NCBI GenBank assembly: GCA_048617235.1
Contig: JBMCHT010000004.1
Span: forward strand, 46,107-110,106
DNA: 64,000 nucleotides
Origin: Patescibacteria group bacterium
Lineage (GTDB): Bacteria > Patescibacteriota > Minisyncoccia > Phycocordibacterales > XYD1-FULL-46-19
Direction of reading: 5' to 3'
Shown piece after piece: positions 1 to 42,405 of this stretch. The notes beneath the pieces are model-generated. The model searched no databases, was not told where the DNA came from, and worked only from the letters and a program-made list of their open reading frames with translations. Made by a program: the position numbers and the translations under genes. The first letter of the stretch is position 1. The number at the start of each line of letters is the position of its first letter.

Positions 1-363
1 TCGCTCCGTCAGGCTTTCGCCCATTGCGGAAGATTCTCGACTGCGGCCACCCGTAGGTGTATGGTCCGTGTCTCAGTACCATCGGCGGGGGCCAGGCTCT
101 CACCTCCCCTAAGCGTCATAGCCTTGGTAGGCCATTACCCTACCAACAAGCTGATACTCCGCAGGCCGATCCTTAAGCGCCAAAGCTTTACCGATCATAT
201 AAATATGAGCGGACTATCGGGTATTACTCCATCTTTCAATGGGTTATCCCCGTCTCAAGGGTTCGTTCCTACGTGTTACTGCCTCGTTTGCCATGCCGAG
301 CAAGCTCGGCATTCGACTTGCATGCCTAATCCACGTCGCCAGCGTTCATCCTGAGCTAGGATC
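1..363 (-). rRNA. rrs: 16S rRNA, 5' portion only (gene continues beyond window start)
   Basis: Reverse complement of 340-363 is AGAGTTTGATCCTAGCTCAGGATGAACGCTGGCG, the universal 16S 5' end. Reverse complement of 1-60 matches the conserved ~340-395 region (ACACCTACGGGTGGCCGCAG...CCGCAATGGGCGAAAGCCTGACGGAGCGA). Confidence 0.9.
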
Positions 364-642
364 AAACTCTCAAAAAAATGAACGGAACAAAAGAAAAAAC
401 AATATTACTAATTATAAGCGAATGTGTGAATCATACGATTGAATAAATTCAATCGTTAATCCAGTCTATATGCATATGCAATTGTTAAAGAACGTTCCGA
501 AATGGCACCTTATCTAATATAAGGTACATCGCCTATTATAACCAGATGAAAGTAAATGTCAACCAAATTAAACAGTCTAAACAATTACTTTTATAAACAA
601 ACACTGCTTCAACTAAAAAGTCAAAACAGTGTTTATTTTTAA

Positions 643-1052
643 GCAATTCAAGATCTATAAGCCGGATTCTGTATCTTATCTTAAGATAAGACGGTAGCCA
701 TTTATCTGGAATCGACATTGCTGCCGACTTCTGGCGGCACTTCTTGTAAAAACAAGACACGGCCTTGCACTCGAGTAAGGATTTAGCCGTTTCACTTTTC
801 GACTTCACTTAAAGTTGAACTTTAAGTTTATACGAAACTCATCCTGAAATAACAGGATGCTTTTATTTTTTCAAATAAAAGCGTCTCTGCTCGCACCTCT
901 AATTCAGCTAAACCGAATCGACGGGTGTTACCCGCTACCCGGCTCCCGATACCATTTTCAGTCTCCATCGTCGTAGAAACTGAAAACGGTATCGGGGAGT
1001 GTCCGGACTTTCCTCTTCTTGTAAAAGAAGCGACTACCCGATCTTGAATTGC
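643..1052 (-). ncRNA. rnpB: RNase P RNA, bacterial type A-like (~410 nt)
   Basis: Minus-strand transcript has a 12-bp P1 (GCAAUUCAAGAU at the 5' end pairs AUCUUGAAUUGC at the 3' end). A P3 hairpin is followed by GAGGAAAGUCCGGAC (P4 5' strand, including the bulged U). Internal motifs include GGGUAACACCC, GUGCGAGCAGAGACGC, GUGAAACGGCUAA, GAGUGCAAGGCC and CCAGAUAAAUGGCUACC. The 3' end carries ACAGAAUCCGGCUUAUAG (J2/4 plus P4 3' strand). P2 shows covariation (GUAG/CUAC here versus ACAG/CUGU in the E. coli sequence recalled from memory). Confidence 0.8.
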
Positions 1053-1079
1053 TGATTTATTATACCAGTAAATTATAAC

Positions 1080-3365
1080 TTAGGCAATATCACAAACTCC
1101 GGAGACACAAGCCAATTCTTTTTTAACTTCCGTTTCATCATGAATCTCATAACTTAATAATTTAGAGAAATCTATATTTTCATAATACTTCATTAACTCC
1201 TCATACTGTTTCTTATTTATCTCTTCATAAGGAGCCAATTGATAGACATGATTGGTTCGAGGTAAGAAAGATAAGCCACCAACTATCTCCCAATTTTTAT
1301 AAACCCAATTAGCTACTTCCACCCATTCACCCTCTCCCACCGAAACTGTGACTGAAGGATTATGTTCGGTATAACTGGTCTTCACTATTTTCCAATGTTC
1401 CAACTGATCTAAAGCCGAAATGTCGTCTTTATAAACAGAGCCTTCAGGAGCTTTAACCGGAAAATCTATAACAAAAGTACTAGCTTCGTTTATATCTTGA
1501 CCAACTTCCGGATTATAAGGTATTCCTTGATCGCGCAACATTTTAAACAAAGAATCGGTAGCTGAAATCCTGACTCTTCTAATATAGTAAGGAGCGTGTC
1601 GCGGATGCATTCCCGAAGAACAATCCACCATCTGAGACAAAGTCCCCGATGGTTTCACACAAGTAATGGCGGTTGATTGTTCTATATTAAAACGTTTGGC
1701 ATATTTGGCATTAATTTTTATAGACTCTTTTCTCAAACGCTCTAGTATTTTCGGATCCCTAGCTAAAGAACTATCCCATTGACCGGTAATAGATACTCCC
1801 AACAATCTTTCTTGTTTGCAATTCTTTTCCCAATCTTTGGATAAATAAGAAAACTTAGTTAAAGAAGACTGAAAAGTTCCCAAAATGGTAGCTAGGCGCA
1901 TTTTACGTATTAAACTCTCTTCGGTATCTTCAGCTCGAGCCACAATTTCCGATAAGTTACAAAATTGTTTGGATTTTAATATTATCTCACCACAAGGATT
2001 AGTACCCATATCTCCAACAAAACCACTCAACACCTCCAATCTTCTCTCCGGTAAAGTATCTTTTAAAGCCGAGCGATTAAAAATACCTCTTTCACCGGAA
2101 CCGCTTTTAACCAAAGATAACCATTCCTCCAAAAACTCTTTATTAGTTGGTTTATAATTATAAACCGCCGAGTTATTGGCCATACTTCTTTGCGGTTCGC
2201 TTAAATAAAACTGTCCTTTCTTGGCATCTCTCATCTTTTCATCATATAAATCAGACAGAGAAATCATGGCACTACGACGAACTCCTCCGGCCACCACTAT
2301 TTCACCTATTTTACAGATAATGTCATGGGCATCTAAGTTGGTTAAACGACGCCCTTGACTACCCATTATCTTTTCCCGAGTAAAATCCAACAATCGACGC
2401 AAGGGTTCCGGTCCGGAAGATTTTCCACCCATAGTTTTTAAACGAGCCCCGGCCGGTCTTAGTTTTGAATAATCAAATTGAATATCTTCTCCGGCATACC
2501 AAGTTTCTAAACCTAGACTCAAAGCATCACACCAACCTTCTTTATTGTCTTCAACCGCATGAGTTGGTTTTACAACCCCGGTCTGAGTCTTAATAATCGG
2601 TAACTCTTGTATAAATTTACTTTCCACTGAATAACCAACTCCGGTACCACACATGGAGATATACATAATTTCTGAAAAATCTTTCAATTTTTTGGGAGCA
2701 ATAAAAGAACAATTATAAGCACAAACATTTGTCCGCCTGGCGGCCGGACCGGCAAATTGCAATAATCTCATTGAAGGCATAGCTTCATGTTTTAAAATTC
2801 CTTCTCTAACTTCTTCATACTCTTTAGCGGTTAAAACATCCCCGATATTTTCTTTCATAAAATCCATATACCGATCAACCGTTTCAATCCAAGTTTCTCG
2901 CCTATTTTCTTCTTCTATCCAACGAGAATAGGTGCGGTAATATATAAATTCTCCCAAAGGATCCCTAAAATATTGCCGACTGTCTTTAACCAATTGCTTA
3001 ACTTTTTCCGGAATTACCCCTTTTTGTTGCCTTAATTCTGACCTCCTTTCCCGATACAAAATATAGGATTTGGCGGTTTTAACCAATTTATGAAATATCA
3101 ATTCTTTCTCCACTACATCCTGAATATATTCTACTGTTGGAATAAAATTCCCATCACCATTATGATGCTTGGCTTGAATTTTTAAATCCGCCAACACCGA
3201 TTGAGCAACTTCTTTGGCGGTTTTCTCATCTCCCTCTTGAGTTACTTGTAAAGATTTATTGATAGCCAGCTCCACTTTAGTAATATCAAAATCAACCACC
3301 GTGCCGTCTCTTTTTCTAACTTTTTTTATATTATTTCGACTGGAGTGAGAATGTTTTTTAACCAT
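1080..3365 (-). CDS. ribonucleotide reductase catalytic subunit with N-terminal ATP-cone; likely class II (B12-dependent) because no beta subunit gene is adjacent
   Basis: 761-aa ORF. N-terminal ATP-cone-like segment (VVKRDGTVVDFDITKV). Catalytic-site NPCGEI motif (Asn-x-Cys-x-Glu). The ORF-track start is a TTG; the ATG lies 2 codons downstream. Confidence 0.7.
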   Translation of the reverse strand: MVKKHSHSSRNNIKKVRKRDGTVVDFDITKVELAINKSLQVTQEGDEKTAKEVAQSVLADLKIQAKHHNGDGNFIPTVEYIQDVVEKELIFHKLVKTAKSYILYRERRSELRQQKGVIPEKVKQLVKDSRQYFRDPLGEFIYYRTYSRWIEEENRRETWIETVDRYMDFMKENIGDVLTAKEYEEVREGILKHEAMPSMRLLQFAGPAARRTNVCAYNCSFIAPKKLKDFSEIMYISMCGTGVGYSVESKFIQELPIIKTQTGVVKPTHAVEDNKEGWCDALSLGLETWYAGEDIQFDYSKLRPAGARLKTMGGKSSGPEPLRRLLDFTREKIMGSQGRRLTNLDAHDIICKIGEIVVAGGVRRSAMISLSDLYDEKMRDAKKGQFYLSEPQRSMANNSAVYNYKPTNKEFLEEWLSLVKSGSGERGIFNRSALKDTLPERRLEVLSGFVGDMGTNPCGEIILKSKQFCNLSEIVARAEDTEESLIRKMRLATILGTFQSSLTKFSYLSKDWEKNCKQERLLGVSITGQWDSSLARDPKILERLRKESIKINAKYAKRFNIEQSTAITCVKPSGTLSQMVDCSSGMHPRHAPYYIRRVRISATDSLFKMLRDQGIPYNPEVGQDINEASTFVIDFPVKAPEGSVYKDDISALDQLEHWKIVKTSYTEHNPSVTVSVGEGEWVEVANWVYKNWEIVGGLSFLPRTNHVYQLAPYEEINKKQYEELMKYYENIDFSKLLSYEIHDETEVKKELACVSGVCDIA

Positions 3366-3561
3366 AGACAATAGATAAAATTATTTTTTAAAGTACACCC
3401 ATTTTAAACCAAAAGCTGACTGAGACCAAGTTAAAATTATCCACCAATAACCGATTTTATCCAGCAAAAAATAAAAATCAACCTCTTACAAGGTCAACTC
3501 TTAGAAAAGACGGAGGACTAAGACTAAAAATAAAAACTTAAAACAAAAATTTTACAAAAAT

Positions 3562-6072: not shown

Positions 6073-6754
6073 GTTTTAAATATTTTGTTTTTAAAAAGTT
6101 ACTAAATTTTTCCATTTCCATTTGAGCCGCTTCCAAAACTTCTCCTTTACGATCTCTGTCCGCTTGCGATAATTCCGCCCACCTAAATTCCATTTCATTG
6201 GGAATAAAAAACTTACCGCCATTATGGAGCATAAAATCAAAAGCTCCATCTTCAAGCATCAACCTCTCTTCTTCAGTGACCTCCCGAGCCTGATAAAATT
6301 CCTCCAATAAAGATTGTAATTTTTGTTTTAATTTTTCATTCTTTTCTCTTAGGAGTTTAGCTTCTTTTGTTTCCGGTTGTTGCCTAATAATATTTACAGC
6401 TTCTTTCCAAGCCTCCATATTGTCTCCTTTCTTAACCTCTTCTACCGAAACTCCATACTTAGCAGCCACTTGTTTATAAATCTCTGTTTCGTTTTCATAA
6501 AACTCTTCTATATTATCATCGGCTGTAATAGTAACCCAAGGAGCCGGATAACCACTATCTAAATGCCCTTCACAAGACATACCGGTTGGAAAACCCCAAA
6601 CATTGAGCATAACGATTGCTTCTTTTATTTTTCCATCTAAAGGCATACCTAAAGCATCTCCCCAATTTTCCACTTCCTGTCTTGCTTTCTCAATCTTTTG
6701 CTCTTTAGGACTTTTGTCCTCCTTATTTGCTGATATGTTATTTTCGAAATTCAT
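6065..6754 (-). CDS. hypothetical protein, acidic with coiled-coil region
   Basis: 229-aa ORF. Overlaps the TspO start by 8 nt. No motif I recognise. Confidence 0.4.
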   Translation of the reverse strand: MNFENNISANKEDKSPKEQKIEKARQEVENWGDALGMPLDGKIKEAIVMLNVWGFPTGMSCEGHLDSGYPAPWVTITADDNIEEFYENETEIYKQVAAKYGVSVEEVKKGDNMEAWKEAVNIIRQQPETKEAKLLREKNEKLKQKLQSLLEEFYQAREVTEEERLMLEDGAFDFMLHNGGKFFIPNEMEFRWAELSQADRDRKGEVLEAAQMEMEKFSNFLKTKYLKHE

Positions 6755-6800
6755 AGACTTATTTTAACCAAAAACAGACCTAAAAACTAGTTTTTTAAAT

Positions 6801-7787
6801 TTAATGTTTAACTATTCTTAATAAAGGTTTTTTATTATAAACATTTAATTGAACCATTCCGCCAATAGGAAAAGTGATCATCGGATAAGTATGCCCAAAA
6901 TCCACATTAGCCAATACCGGTAAATAATCCAATTCTTTTTTAGATTTAATAACTTTTATTAATTGTTCAGTTTTAATTTCACTGGCTTTTTGAAATCTTC
7001 CAATTACAATTCCTTTCATTTTCTTAAAATTTGGCAAATGAATCAAAGATTGTAAATCCCGATCGAAATTAAATATTTTAGACTCTGCATCATCTTCTAA
7101 AAACAAAATCGAACCGGAGATATCCGGAAAATACTCCGATCCTTGTAAAAGATTAAAGGTGCAAATATTAGCTCCTAAAATTTTACCCTCGGCCTGACCC
7201 TCATTAATAACCAACCAATCATCATTTTTTATTAATTGCCTGTTATCTTGATCTAAATACCACCTATCATCACTCCAAGATTCACTGGGAAAAATATCAA
7301 ACTCCTGATCACTAAATAAACATTTTTTAAAATATTCCAAAGTATAATCAAAATAAAGTTTTTGACCGAAAGTTGAATAAGCCGGGCCGGAATAAGTAAC
7401 TAAGCCGGTTTTGGTATAGATAGCATTTTGCAAAGCGGTAGTATCCGAATAACCCACAAAAACTTTCGGATTAGCTTTGATTAAATCCCAATCTAAATAA
7501 TTTAAAAGTTGATTGCAATTGAAACCTCCAATAACCGTAAAAATTCCTTTAACACTTTTATCTGAAAAAGCTTGGTGTAAATCACTAACCCTTGATTTAA
7601 TTGAAGAAGAATCAAATTCATCACACTCCTTTACATTATTAGCAAAAGATAATTCTAAACCCATTGTTTTAAATCTATCATTGGCTATTTGCCTAACTTC
7701 CTCAGAAATTAAACCTAAAGAATCCGAAGGAGCCACCACCATAACTTTATCTCCTTTTTTTAATTTATCCGGAAAAATTGTTTTCAT
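6801..7787 (-). CDS. LD-carboxypeptidase (peptidase S66, LdcA/MccF-like)
   Basis: GYSDTTAL catalytic serine motif. Length and layout typical of S66 enzymes. Confidence 0.65.
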   Translation of the reverse strand: MKTIFPDKLKKGDKVMVVAPSDSLGLISEEVRQIANDRFKTMGLELSFANNVKECDEFDSSSIKSRVSDLHQAFSDKSVKGIFTVIGGFNCNQLLNYLDWDLIKANPKVFVGYSDTTALQNAIYTKTGLVTYSGPAYSTFGQKLYFDYTLEYFKKCLFSDQEFDIFPSESWSDDRWYLDQDNRQLIKNDDWLVINEGQAEGKILGANICTFNLLQGSEYFPDISGSILFLEDDAESKIFNFDRDLQSLIHLPNFKKMKGIVIGRFQKASEIKTEQLIKVIKSKKELDYLPVLANVDFGHTYPMITFPIGGMVQLNVYNKKPLLRIVKH

Positions 7788-7823
7788 ACTATAAAGTTAA
7801 CAAATATATTATCATTTACCAAT

Positions 7824-10470: not shown

Positions 10471-12123
<1,653 letters not shown>

Positions 12124-12152
12124 CTTAAATTCTTTTAAAATCCAAGTTAAAT

Positions 12153-13052
12153 TTATTTATCACTTTGTCTTAGAGCTTTTATTCTTTCCTCCACCGGCGG
12201 ATGAGTCATAAACAATTTATGCAAACCGAAACGACTTTTTGAGCCGAAAGGGCTGGCAATAAATAAATGAGCCGTAGCATTGGAGGATTTTTTTATTTCC
12301 CCCGGGTAAGCGGAGATTTTTTCCAAAGCTCGAGCCAAACCTTCCGGATAACGAGTTAGTAAAGCACCGGAAGCATCTGCCAAAAATTCCCGTTTACGAG
12401 AGATAGCCAATTGAATCACCATGGCAATAATGGGAGCCAAAATAGCCAAAGCAATTCCTCCGATGATCATTAGCATTTGTGCCCGACCGTCTCGATTGCC
12501 ACCACCCAAGCCACCCCAAATAGTGGCTCTTAAGAAGAAATCGGATAAAAGAGCGACAAAACCCACCAAAACCACCACTATGGTTTGAAGTAAAATATCT
12601 CGATTACCAATATGAGATAATTCATGAGCCACCACTCCTTCCAGTTCGGTTTTATCCAACCTATCTAATAATCCGGTGGTAAAAGCGACAGCGGCATTAT
12701 CGGCATTACGACCGGTAGCAAAAGCATTGGGAGCCGAATCATTAATAATATAAATCCTAGGTTTAGGTAAACCGGCAGTAATGGCCAAATTCTCTACTAA
12801 TCTATGTAATTCCGGATATCTATCGGGACTGGCCGGCTCGGCTCCGGTTACTTTTAAGGCAATTTTATCAGCTTTCCAATAACTGACAAAATTCATTACT
12901 AAACTGAAAATTATGGCAATGTATAAAATTGTTGGATTACCGAACAGTTGAGCAAACAACCATCCCAAACCGATTACAGTTAGCAAAAAGGCGGTCATTA
13001 ATATCCAAGTTCGACGGATATTACTATCCTGATGATTATACAAAGTGGCCAT
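12153..13052 (-). CDS. htpX: HtpX-family zinc metalloprotease (M48)
   Basis: HELSHIGNRD (HExxH) motif. N-terminal transmembrane helices. Typical size. Confidence 0.8.
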   Translation of the reverse strand: MATLYNHQDSNIRRTWILMTAFLLTVIGLGWLFAQLFGNPTILYIAIIFSLVMNFVSYWKADKIALKVTGAEPASPDRYPELHRLVENLAITAGLPKPRIYIINDSAPNAFATGRNADNAAVAFTTGLLDRLDKTELEGVVAHELSHIGNRDILLQTIVVVLVGFVALLSDFFLRATIWGGLGGGNRDGRAQMLMIIGGIALAILAPIIAMVIQLAISRKREFLADASGALLTRYPEGLARALEKISAYPGEIKKSSNATAHLFIASPFGSKSRFGLHKLFMTHPPVEERIKALRQSDK

Positions 13053-38689: not shown

Positions 38690-38800
38690 GGTTCTGGCGG
38701 CTGCCTACTCTCCCCTTACGAGTACCATCGGCACTACCGGGCTTAACTTCTCTGTTCGGAATGGAAAGAGGTGTGTCCCCGGCGTCAAGCCGCCAAAACC
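38690..38800 (-). rRNA. rrf: 5S rRNA
   Basis: Reverse complement is GGTTTTGGCGGCTTGACGCCGGGGACACACC...CCGAACAGAGAAGTTAAGCCCGGTAGTGCCGATGGTACTCG...AGGCAGCCGCCAGAACC, with matching ends. A terminator hairpin follows. Confidence 0.85.
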
Positions 38801-38879
38801 AAACATCGGTTATTTTTAAAAAACTAAAAGTAATCACAAAAACAAAAAACGGTTCCAAATTTCCTAATAGGAATCGACT

Positions 38880-42240
<3,361 letters not shown>

Positions 42241-42405
42241 CCTATTAGGAAATTTATAACCGTTCTAATATTTTTGTGATTACTTTTAGTTTCTTTTAGT
42301 TTCAATGCATGATTCCACCGGCTACTCAGACGGTGAAATCACCTGCTATGTCAGACAAATAAAATTGTCTGAATTTGTCAAAGTTCAAACCCTTGCTGTC
42401 AAAAT

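Follow-up and report, generated by a model that had tools for sequence, protein, structure and literature searches.

An RNase P RNA gene between the RNR and 16S rRNA genes

We analyzed a 64-kb stretch of DNA, referred to as the window, in which an interval between a ribonucleotide reductase (RNR) gene and the 16S rRNA gene had been read, from the letters alone, as an RNase P RNA gene at 643-1052 on the minus strand. RNase P removes 5′ leaders from pre-tRNAs, and rnpB encodes the RNA subunit of this ribonucleoprotein enzyme. The features of the locus are given below from the RNR gene toward the 16S rRNA gene, where A1 denotes an alignment of 32 RNase P RNAs.

1080..3371, minus strand: class II (B12-dependent) RNR with ATP-cone, the upstream neighbour (Pfam ATP-cone, RNR_Alpha, Ribonuc_red_lgC and RNR-II_ins_dom)
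1059..1087, minus strand: putative rnpB promoter, TTGCCT-17-TGgTATAAT (consensus scan, 10/12 matches plus TG; function predicted)
642..1053, minus strand: RNA assigned to rnpB, RNase P RNA, 412 nt (RF00010 match, 14-bp P1 complementarity, covariation in A1)
1053..1040 and 655..642, minus strand: P1 5′ strand and P1 3′ strand (14 bp, by complementarity)
1002..1015, minus strand: CR-I / P4 5′ strand, GAGGAAAGUCCGGA, with a bulged U (columns invariant in A1)
945..996, minus strand: P5/P7 hairpin, 23-bp stem and 6-nt loop (-37.2 kcal/mol, z -8.9)
921..935, minus strand: P8 hairpin, GCGGG-UAACA-CCCGU (100% paired, compensatory changes)
901..919, minus strand: P9, hairpin of 7 bp whose loop, UUUAG, is not GNRA (sequence and alignment; GNRA loop in most homologs)
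797..882, minus strand: H1 (882..859), H2 (858..841) and H3 (837..797), tandem hairpins at the P12 position
734..764, minus strand: P15 (GGC/GCC) and a P16-like hairpin (757..742) (P15 99% paired, compensatory changes)
710..729, minus strand: P18, 8-bp hairpin with a GCAA tetraloop (95.3% paired, both-sided change in all 8 pairs)
673..692, minus strand: P19, 8-bp hairpin with a UUAA loop, between the P2 3′ and P4 3′ strands (fold)
658..672, minus strand: CR-V / P4 3′ strand, ACAGAAUCCGGCUUA (Rfam alignment, A1 conservation, covariation)
595..638, minus strand: terminator-like 20-bp AU-rich hairpin with A-rich/U-rich flanks (-24.8 kcal/mol, z -6.3)
535..562, minus strand: 16S rRNA promoter, TTGACA-16-TATAAT, given for context (12/12 consensus matches)

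The RNA starts 26 nt past the RNR stop codon (1080-1082) and ends 264 nt ahead of the 16S 5′ end (377), close to the spacings of ~28 nt and ~280 nt first estimated. Every sequence feature listed in the sequence-only reading is present in the window.

A default Rfam scan of the whole 64 kb at gathering thresholds returned rRNAs, a group I intron and a tRNA, and no RNase P. The locus was then matched to the class A model RF00010, one of the three models that the sequence-only reading had proposed as a check, in a permissive scan of 380..1300. The match was full-length, model positions 1-367 aligning to 642..1049 on the minus strand with an E-value of 9.6e-29, but its score of 92.7 bits fell below the curated RF00010 gathering score of 100 bits. 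In this alignment, 134 nt of the window RNA were left unaligned and P8 was mis-assigned, and these two defects account for the sub-gathering score.

To place the RNA among its relatives, we used a protein search with the RNR, which gave 80 loci at ≤69% identity, essentially all from Patescibacteria/Parcubacteria (Paceibacterota) MAGs. The exact RNR protein sequence had no match on record, and the bacterium, one with a tiny genome, is placed in the Patescibacteria (CPR) through these relatives. The P4 5′ motif was found in 36 of these loci, mostly just downstream of the RNR gene, and about 25 of the 80 have RNR followed by rnpB on the same strand. From the 36 motif-bearing loci, 31 complete RNAs could be delimited; these constitute the homolog set and, together with the window RNA, the clade set of 32 RNAs. 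The two strands of P4 lie 256 to 630 nt apart in the homologs and 343 nt apart in the window. When 14 clade homologs were scanned, 11 reached the RF00010 gathering score, at 103.6-134 bits, the top value belonging to L053, the best-scoring compact homolog. Judged by its model match and its relatives, the window RNA belongs, below threshold, to a family that Rfam does detect in close relatives, and standard annotation overlooks this rnpB because lineage-typical extra hairpins lower its score to just under the cut-off. Note that the RNA of L069 (6346-6781), in whose P8 hairpin, highly conserved in the other RNAs, ~60 nt are inserted between GGUAGCG and GGUAACCCCCGUC, is also short of the Rfam gathering score.

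Conservation and covariation of the catalytic core

GAGGAAAGUCCGG, at 1015..1003 of the window on the minus strand, and ACAGAAUCCGGCUUA pair as P4, the universal bulged U included. From CR-I to CR-V, the segments GAGGAAAGUCC, CAGAGA, GUGAAAC, GCAAGG and ACAGAAnnCGGCUUA are present and are invariant or nearly so in the 32 sequences, and the invariant columns of A1 coincide with the catalytic core. The universal core is in place, comprising P4 and the U bulged from it, J3/4, the adenosines of J5/15, and CR-I to CR-V.

To examine covariation, we derived a core structure by hand and projected it onto A1 with its 32 sequences. Standard pairs occupied 92.9% of the cells, compared with 38-43% when the 3′ partners were slid by 1-3 columns, and both-sided change was seen in 49 of the 66 pairs. 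The covariation score was 0.487, against 0.179 for shuffles, and none of 500 shuffles reached the observed value on any of five measures. Compensatory changes were found in P2, P3, P5, P7, P8, P10, P15 and P18. Folding with covariation on CPR homologs, put forward earlier as a further check, thus bears out the core helices: the alignment supports P1-P5, P7, P8, P10, P15 and P18. P11 is invariant in A1 and therefore uninformative in this respect.

P4 is paired in 99.6% of cells in A1, and the window has a G-C pair where 30 relatives have A-U, which is a compensatory change. The loop of P8 in the window is of the UAAC type; L8 contacts P4 in known structures. The P18 loops in the homologs are GNRA, as the type A architecture requires, and the P18 GNRA loop would dock on P8, a contact that we predict from this architecture.

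Since open reading frames do exist mechanically in this interval, we considered whether the region might be protein-coding, via a 90-aa ORF (536..808) or a 46-aa ORF (828..968), with its likeness to RNase P RNA being incidental. The overlapping ORFs at 536..808, 828..968 and 925..1047 were, however, ruled out as genes, as none of them had a Pfam match. Substitutions among the homologs keep base pairs and not codons, the 90-aa ORF crosses the 3′ end of the RNA, the terminator-like hairpin and the 16S promoter, and the E-value of 9.6e-29 for the covariance model also argues against coding, so that we assign this explanation a practically negligible probability.

A decaying or duplicated rnpB pseudogene, with the working gene located elsewhere in the genome, would fit the score under the Rfam gathering threshold as well as the missing helices and the long inserts described below. 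However, the catalytic-core nucleotides are all intact and invariant or nearly so across the 32 sequences, the window's own substitutions, such as that in P4, are compensatory, and the reduced architecture, gene neighbourhood, promoter and terminator are common to the 31 relatives. Furthermore, no other RNase P match was found within the 64-kb window, which is part of the genome, and CPR genomes are small, the published ones carrying a single diverged rnpB (PMC8172020). We regard a pseudogene as very improbable.

The covariance model, the 31 homologs and the helix-by-helix covariation together confirm the original identification of an RNase P RNA, and we conclude with high confidence that 1053..642 on the minus strand is the organism's rnpB, encoding the catalytic RNA of RNase P in the form of a reduced and remodelled class A derivative of the kind that is typical for Paceibacterota (CPR). 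The window RNA would be expected to cleave pre-tRNAs. rnpB is an ordinary housekeeping gene, and its placement here fills an annotation gap for an essential gene.

Putative promoter and terminator of rnpB

The putative sigma-70-type promoter of rnpB takes in the RNR stop codon, and 5 nt separate its end from P1. Nearly all of the 31 homologs have a TATAAT-like box 5-8 nt before P1, often TG-extended and accompanied by a -35 element, and the -10 box is also kept at loci where rnpB is not downstream of RNR. On the 3′ side, a GC hairpin and a U-run follow right after P1 in nearly all homologs. The hairpin at 595..638 in the window is AU-rich with a U-rich 3′ arm; it was not called by a simple consensus terminator scan and is not a textbook intrinsic terminator. 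We infer that rnpB most likely uses this promoter and is terminated downstream, that is, it would be its own transcription unit, starting where the mature 5′ end lies, or immediately beside it, and stopping at the downstream hairpin.

It had been suggested earlier that the RNase P RNA may be co-transcribed with the RNR gene. The accompanying observation of no intervening terminator is correct, as none lies between RNR and rnpB, and read-through from RNR is therefore possible. It is not required, however, and co-transcription is not needed to explain the RNA, given that the positions of its putative promoter and terminator are conserved in the homologs. A stricter version would hold that the RNA is made only by processing of a long RNR-rnpB co-transcript and that rnpB has no promoter of its own. 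The lack of a terminator in the 26 nt from the RNR stop to P1 and the recurrence of RNR-then-rnpB on the same strand in about 25 of 80 related loci speak for it. On the other hand, a TG-extended -10 box with a -35 element ends 5 nt before P1, a TATAAT-like box is kept in nearly all homologs, including L001, where rnpB is convergent with RNR, and L013, where rnpB lies upstream, and nearly all homologs have their own terminator after rnpB. We consider exclusive production from a co-transcript unlikely, and an independent rnpB unit, to which read-through may still add transcripts, is preferred.

In L001, where rnpB and RNR are convergent, there is one hairpin between the two genes (6307-6356), apparently a shared bidirectional terminator. 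The RNR-rnpB neighbourhood is therefore kept even where co-transcription is impossible.

A hairpin of free length between P5 and P7

An 18-bp near-perfect hairpin at 941-995 had been pointed out as an unusual feature lying directly after the P4 5′ strand. The hairpin is real, but as measured here it has 23 bp and a 6-nt loop and spans 996..945, and it is located after the 5′ strand of P5. Nor is it unusual for the clade, since all 32 RNAs have a hairpin at this site, which is the position of the type B P5.1 and the place where the 5′ strand of P6 would lie. In these 32 RNAs, the hairpin adjoins P5, and a conserved AGNA tail comes after it, but neither its sequence nor its length is conserved; the stems range from 4 bp (L016) up to branched elements of >100 nt (L007, L021, L022 and L034). 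The Rfam alignment of L053 handles the hairpin as an insertion.

In published tables, P5.1 occurs in type B only, replacing P6/P16/P17 (PMC2858038; PMC7191817), and the L5.1-L15.1 contact is a hallmark of type B (PMC5066622). Both P10.1 and P15.1 are absent in the window RNA and in the clade alignment. Because the P15.1 receptor is absent and because loop and length are unconstrained, the hairpin is predicted to be unable to act as the type B P5.1 does.

Given that the hairpin is unusually long and nearly perfect, it might have been a recently inserted foreign or mobile palindromic element rather than a native helix; copying into such sites does occur, as four homologs have repeated modules in several peripheral helices. 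We searched for its arms elsewhere in the 64-kb window, however, and found no repeats, and the exact site is occupied by a hairpin in 32 of 32 clade RNAs, indicating that the site is native. An inserted mobile element is accordingly judged improbable, and at most the distal extension of the 23-bp hairpin is young. Since length and sequence vary freely among relatives in the distal parts of this hairpin and in those of P19, these parts would most likely be neutral expansion segments carried by a scaffold that is itself conserved.

Missing and rearranged peripheral helices

The definition of type A (Haas/Brown/Massire, as cited in PMC5066622 and PMC7191817) includes a P6 pseudoknot, formed by the P5/P7 linker and the P17 loop, together with P16 and P17. 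Only a P16-like hairpin of this set was found. P17 is missing from the window RNA, and in the Rfam alignment of L053 it is cut from 23 nt to 3 nt. A search of the 32 RNAs for a P6-like pairing of the P5/P7 linker with bases left unpaired in the P16 arm was negative; the mean longest duplex was 2.28 nt, against 2.47 nt in shuffled sequences, and only 1 of the 32 RNAs reached a duplex of 4 nt.

The second type A element examined was the GGU in L15/16 for the tRNA 3′ CCA, and it was likewise lacking. J16/15 reads AGU in the window, not GGU, and GGU is present in only 3 of the 32 RNAs. Among 37 tRNA genes of the window and the related loci, 31 lack an encoded CCA, and the loss of GGU is consistent with these mostly CCA-less tRNA genes; the window's single tRNA-Ser gene has one. 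The claim that the RNA shows every hallmark of type A therefore needs correction: the P1-P4 core, P18 and the RF00010 match are there, but the P6 pseudoknot, P17 and GGU are absent.

The specificity (S) domain is rearranged as well. H1-H3 lie between J11/12 (GAGCAGAGACG, 892..882) and GUGAAAC (795..789), and GUGAAAC joins the 3′ strand of P11 directly, after all three hairpins. Exactly three S-domain hairpins are found in 29 of the 32 clade RNAs and one in the other 3; across the clade, the loop of H1 is GAAA or GAGA, that of H2 is variable, and that of H3 is G-GNRA-C. On L053, Rfam equates H1 with P12 and H3 with P14. The order of elements at this junction resembles that of type B, however, which speaks against this mapping, and H1-H3 are candidate counterparts of P12, P13 and P14.

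P19

The second feature singled out as unusual in the sequence-only reading was an 8-bp palindromic hairpin at 672-690. Its 8 bp were correct, and its span was measured here as 692..673 with a UUAA loop; it follows the P2 3′ strand and precedes ACAGAA in the P4 3′ strand. It is not unusual, for it corresponds to P19, a known optional element (PMC9945441), which is present in 25 of the 32 clade RNAs; the other 7 have a linker of ~3-4 nt between P2 and ACAGAA. As published, P19 is a hairpin between the P2 3′ and P4 3′ strands, and an R19 linker of ~4 nt is found where it is absent (PMC9945441). The window hairpin is like the P19 of type A RNAs, e.g., those of the Planctomycetes-Verrucomicrobia-Chlamydiae group, in having the same site and the same short-linker alternative (PMC9945441). 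We see no substantive difference from the published P19; the window version is short, perfectly palindromic and AU-rich.

Repeats and perfect hairpins within rnpB genes

In four of the homologous rnpB genes, one and the same module of 25-100 nt is directly repeated within a single RNA, in several of its peripheral helices. The repeated modules are located as follows.

L005, 6385-6460 / 6796-6871 / 6597-6679: repeated module
L021, 7358-7458 / 7723-7823: repeated module
L034, 6665-6763 / 6780-6880: repeated module
L056, 6770-6795 / 6989-7014: repeated module

In L005, the P3 element is identical to the P19 element over 76 nt, and a copy with 82% identity lies in the third S-domain hairpin. No copies of the modules were found outside rnpB within those loci. 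In the window, the P3 hairpin (1026..1015) and the P16 arm (about 751..740) share a 12-mer, UUUUACAAGAAG, which none of 300 shuffles reached. Such sharing between P3 and P16 is significant in 7 of the 32 clade RNAs, with a different sequence each time, and suggests recurrent copying or homogenisation between peripheral hairpins.

Several hairpins of the window locus are strikingly perfect. These are 945..996 (23-bp stem), 673..692 (a perfect DNA palindrome, TCTTATCTTAAGATAAGA), 859..882 (10-bp stem) and 595..638 (20-bp stem). Their perfection suggests that they are evolutionarily young, arising, e.g., from template-switch or inverted-duplication events.

Comparison with known RNase P RNAs

We compared the window RNA with class A (RF00010; E. 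coli M1 RNA and Thermotoga maritima P RNA), with type B (Bacillus subtilis; RF00011) and with the RNase P RNAs reported from CPR genomes. With class A it shares the core of P1-P5, P7-P11, P15 and CR-I to CR-V, the bulged U in P4, the P15/P16 internal loop, the P18 GNRA loop and the UAAC-type P8 loop. J2/3 is a single G as in class A, P19 is optional, and RF00010 aligns from end to end. Unlike class A, the window RNA scores 92.7, under 100, has no P6 pseudoknot and no P17, and has AGU rather than GGU in J16/15. Moreover, a hairpin stands in place of the 9-nt P5/P7 linker, and GUGAAA follows all three S-domain hairpins and is joined to P11, whereas it lies between P12 and P13 in class A.

The likeness to type B consists in the hairpin between P5 and P7, the absence of P6 and P17 (PMC7191817, PMC2858038), and a GUGRAAC strand that leads directly into the 3′ strand of P11 and is not followed by P13/P14. 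In contrast to type B, there is no P15.1, which makes the defining L5.1-L15.1 contact impossible (PMC5066622), and no P10.1. Neither loop nor length of the hairpin is conserved across the clade, and P15 bounds an internal loop, not a hairpin loop.

The closest published parallel is found in CPR bacteria. According to Lui, Nielsen and Arkin 2021 (PMC8172020), 10 of 35 circular CPR genomes seemed to be without an RNase P RNA until the RF00010 cut-off was relaxed; the RNAs required manual refolding, with helices extended or missing and with P13, P14, P16 and P17 often absent; and the CCA-binding motif was missing in 23 of the 35, i.e., about two thirds. The window RNA resembles these RNAs in being derived from class A, in falling under default Infernal cut-offs, in having extended and missing helices and in having lost the CCA-binding motif, and differs from some of them in retaining P12, P15 and P18. 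On this comparison, the window rnpB is another instance of a known CPR phenomenon, a diverged and sub-threshold RNase P RNA. It provides a concrete case in which lineage-specific inserts, here with 134 nt unaligned, make default Rfam cut-offs miss a CPR rnpB, and this is relevant where the presence of RNase P RNA serves as a check of genome completeness.

The available text of PMC8172020 contains no description of a conserved hairpin between P5 and P7, of P19, of linkage to RNR or of the promoter/terminator arrangement. Likewise, a literature search mostly of papers outside subscription yielded no description of a hairpin at the P5.1 position, or of these features in combination, in CPR/Paceibacterota. 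We tentatively raise the possibility, to which we give clearly less than even weight, that the Paceibacterota RNase P RNAs, including that of the window, form a distinct and formally undescribed architectural subtype outside both type A and type B. Such a subtype may be characterized by a core of type A that includes P18 and the P15/P16 internal loop, and by the lack of P6, P17 and GGU. It may further have an obligatory local hairpin, free in length, at the P5.1 position of type B but no P15.1, and three tandem hairpins before the CR-III strand. Its peripheral helices appear to have been repeatedly remodelled by intragenic copying, with the same module in P3, P16, P19 and S-domain helices.

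The replacement of the P6 pseudoknot by a local hairpin at the P5.1 site could inform the study of convergent evolution in the periphery of the C-domain. In addition, the ribozymes of the clade, whose lengths run from about 320 to 720 nt, make up a natural series that could inform which RNase P elements are dispensable.

Other RNA genes in the window

The ARAGORN program called a tmRNA at 12010..12517, overlapping tRNA-Ser(GGA) at 12010..12099. Rfam matched just the tRNA, which makes the tmRNA call a probable false positive. The 3′ CCA is encoded in the tRNA-Ser(GGA) gene, unlike in the 31 CCA-less genes among the 37 tRNAs counted in the window and the related loci.

The rRNA genes of the window are unlinked. 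The 16S rRNA gene (1..377, cut by the window edge) lies >38 kb from the 5S and 23S rRNA genes (38692..42247) on the same strand. This arrangement is as reported for many CPR genomes, whose rRNA genes are often unlinked (PMC8172020). The 23S match is 3385 nt long, compared with 2925 nt for the model, and its insertions include a group I intron (RF00028, 39162..39369).
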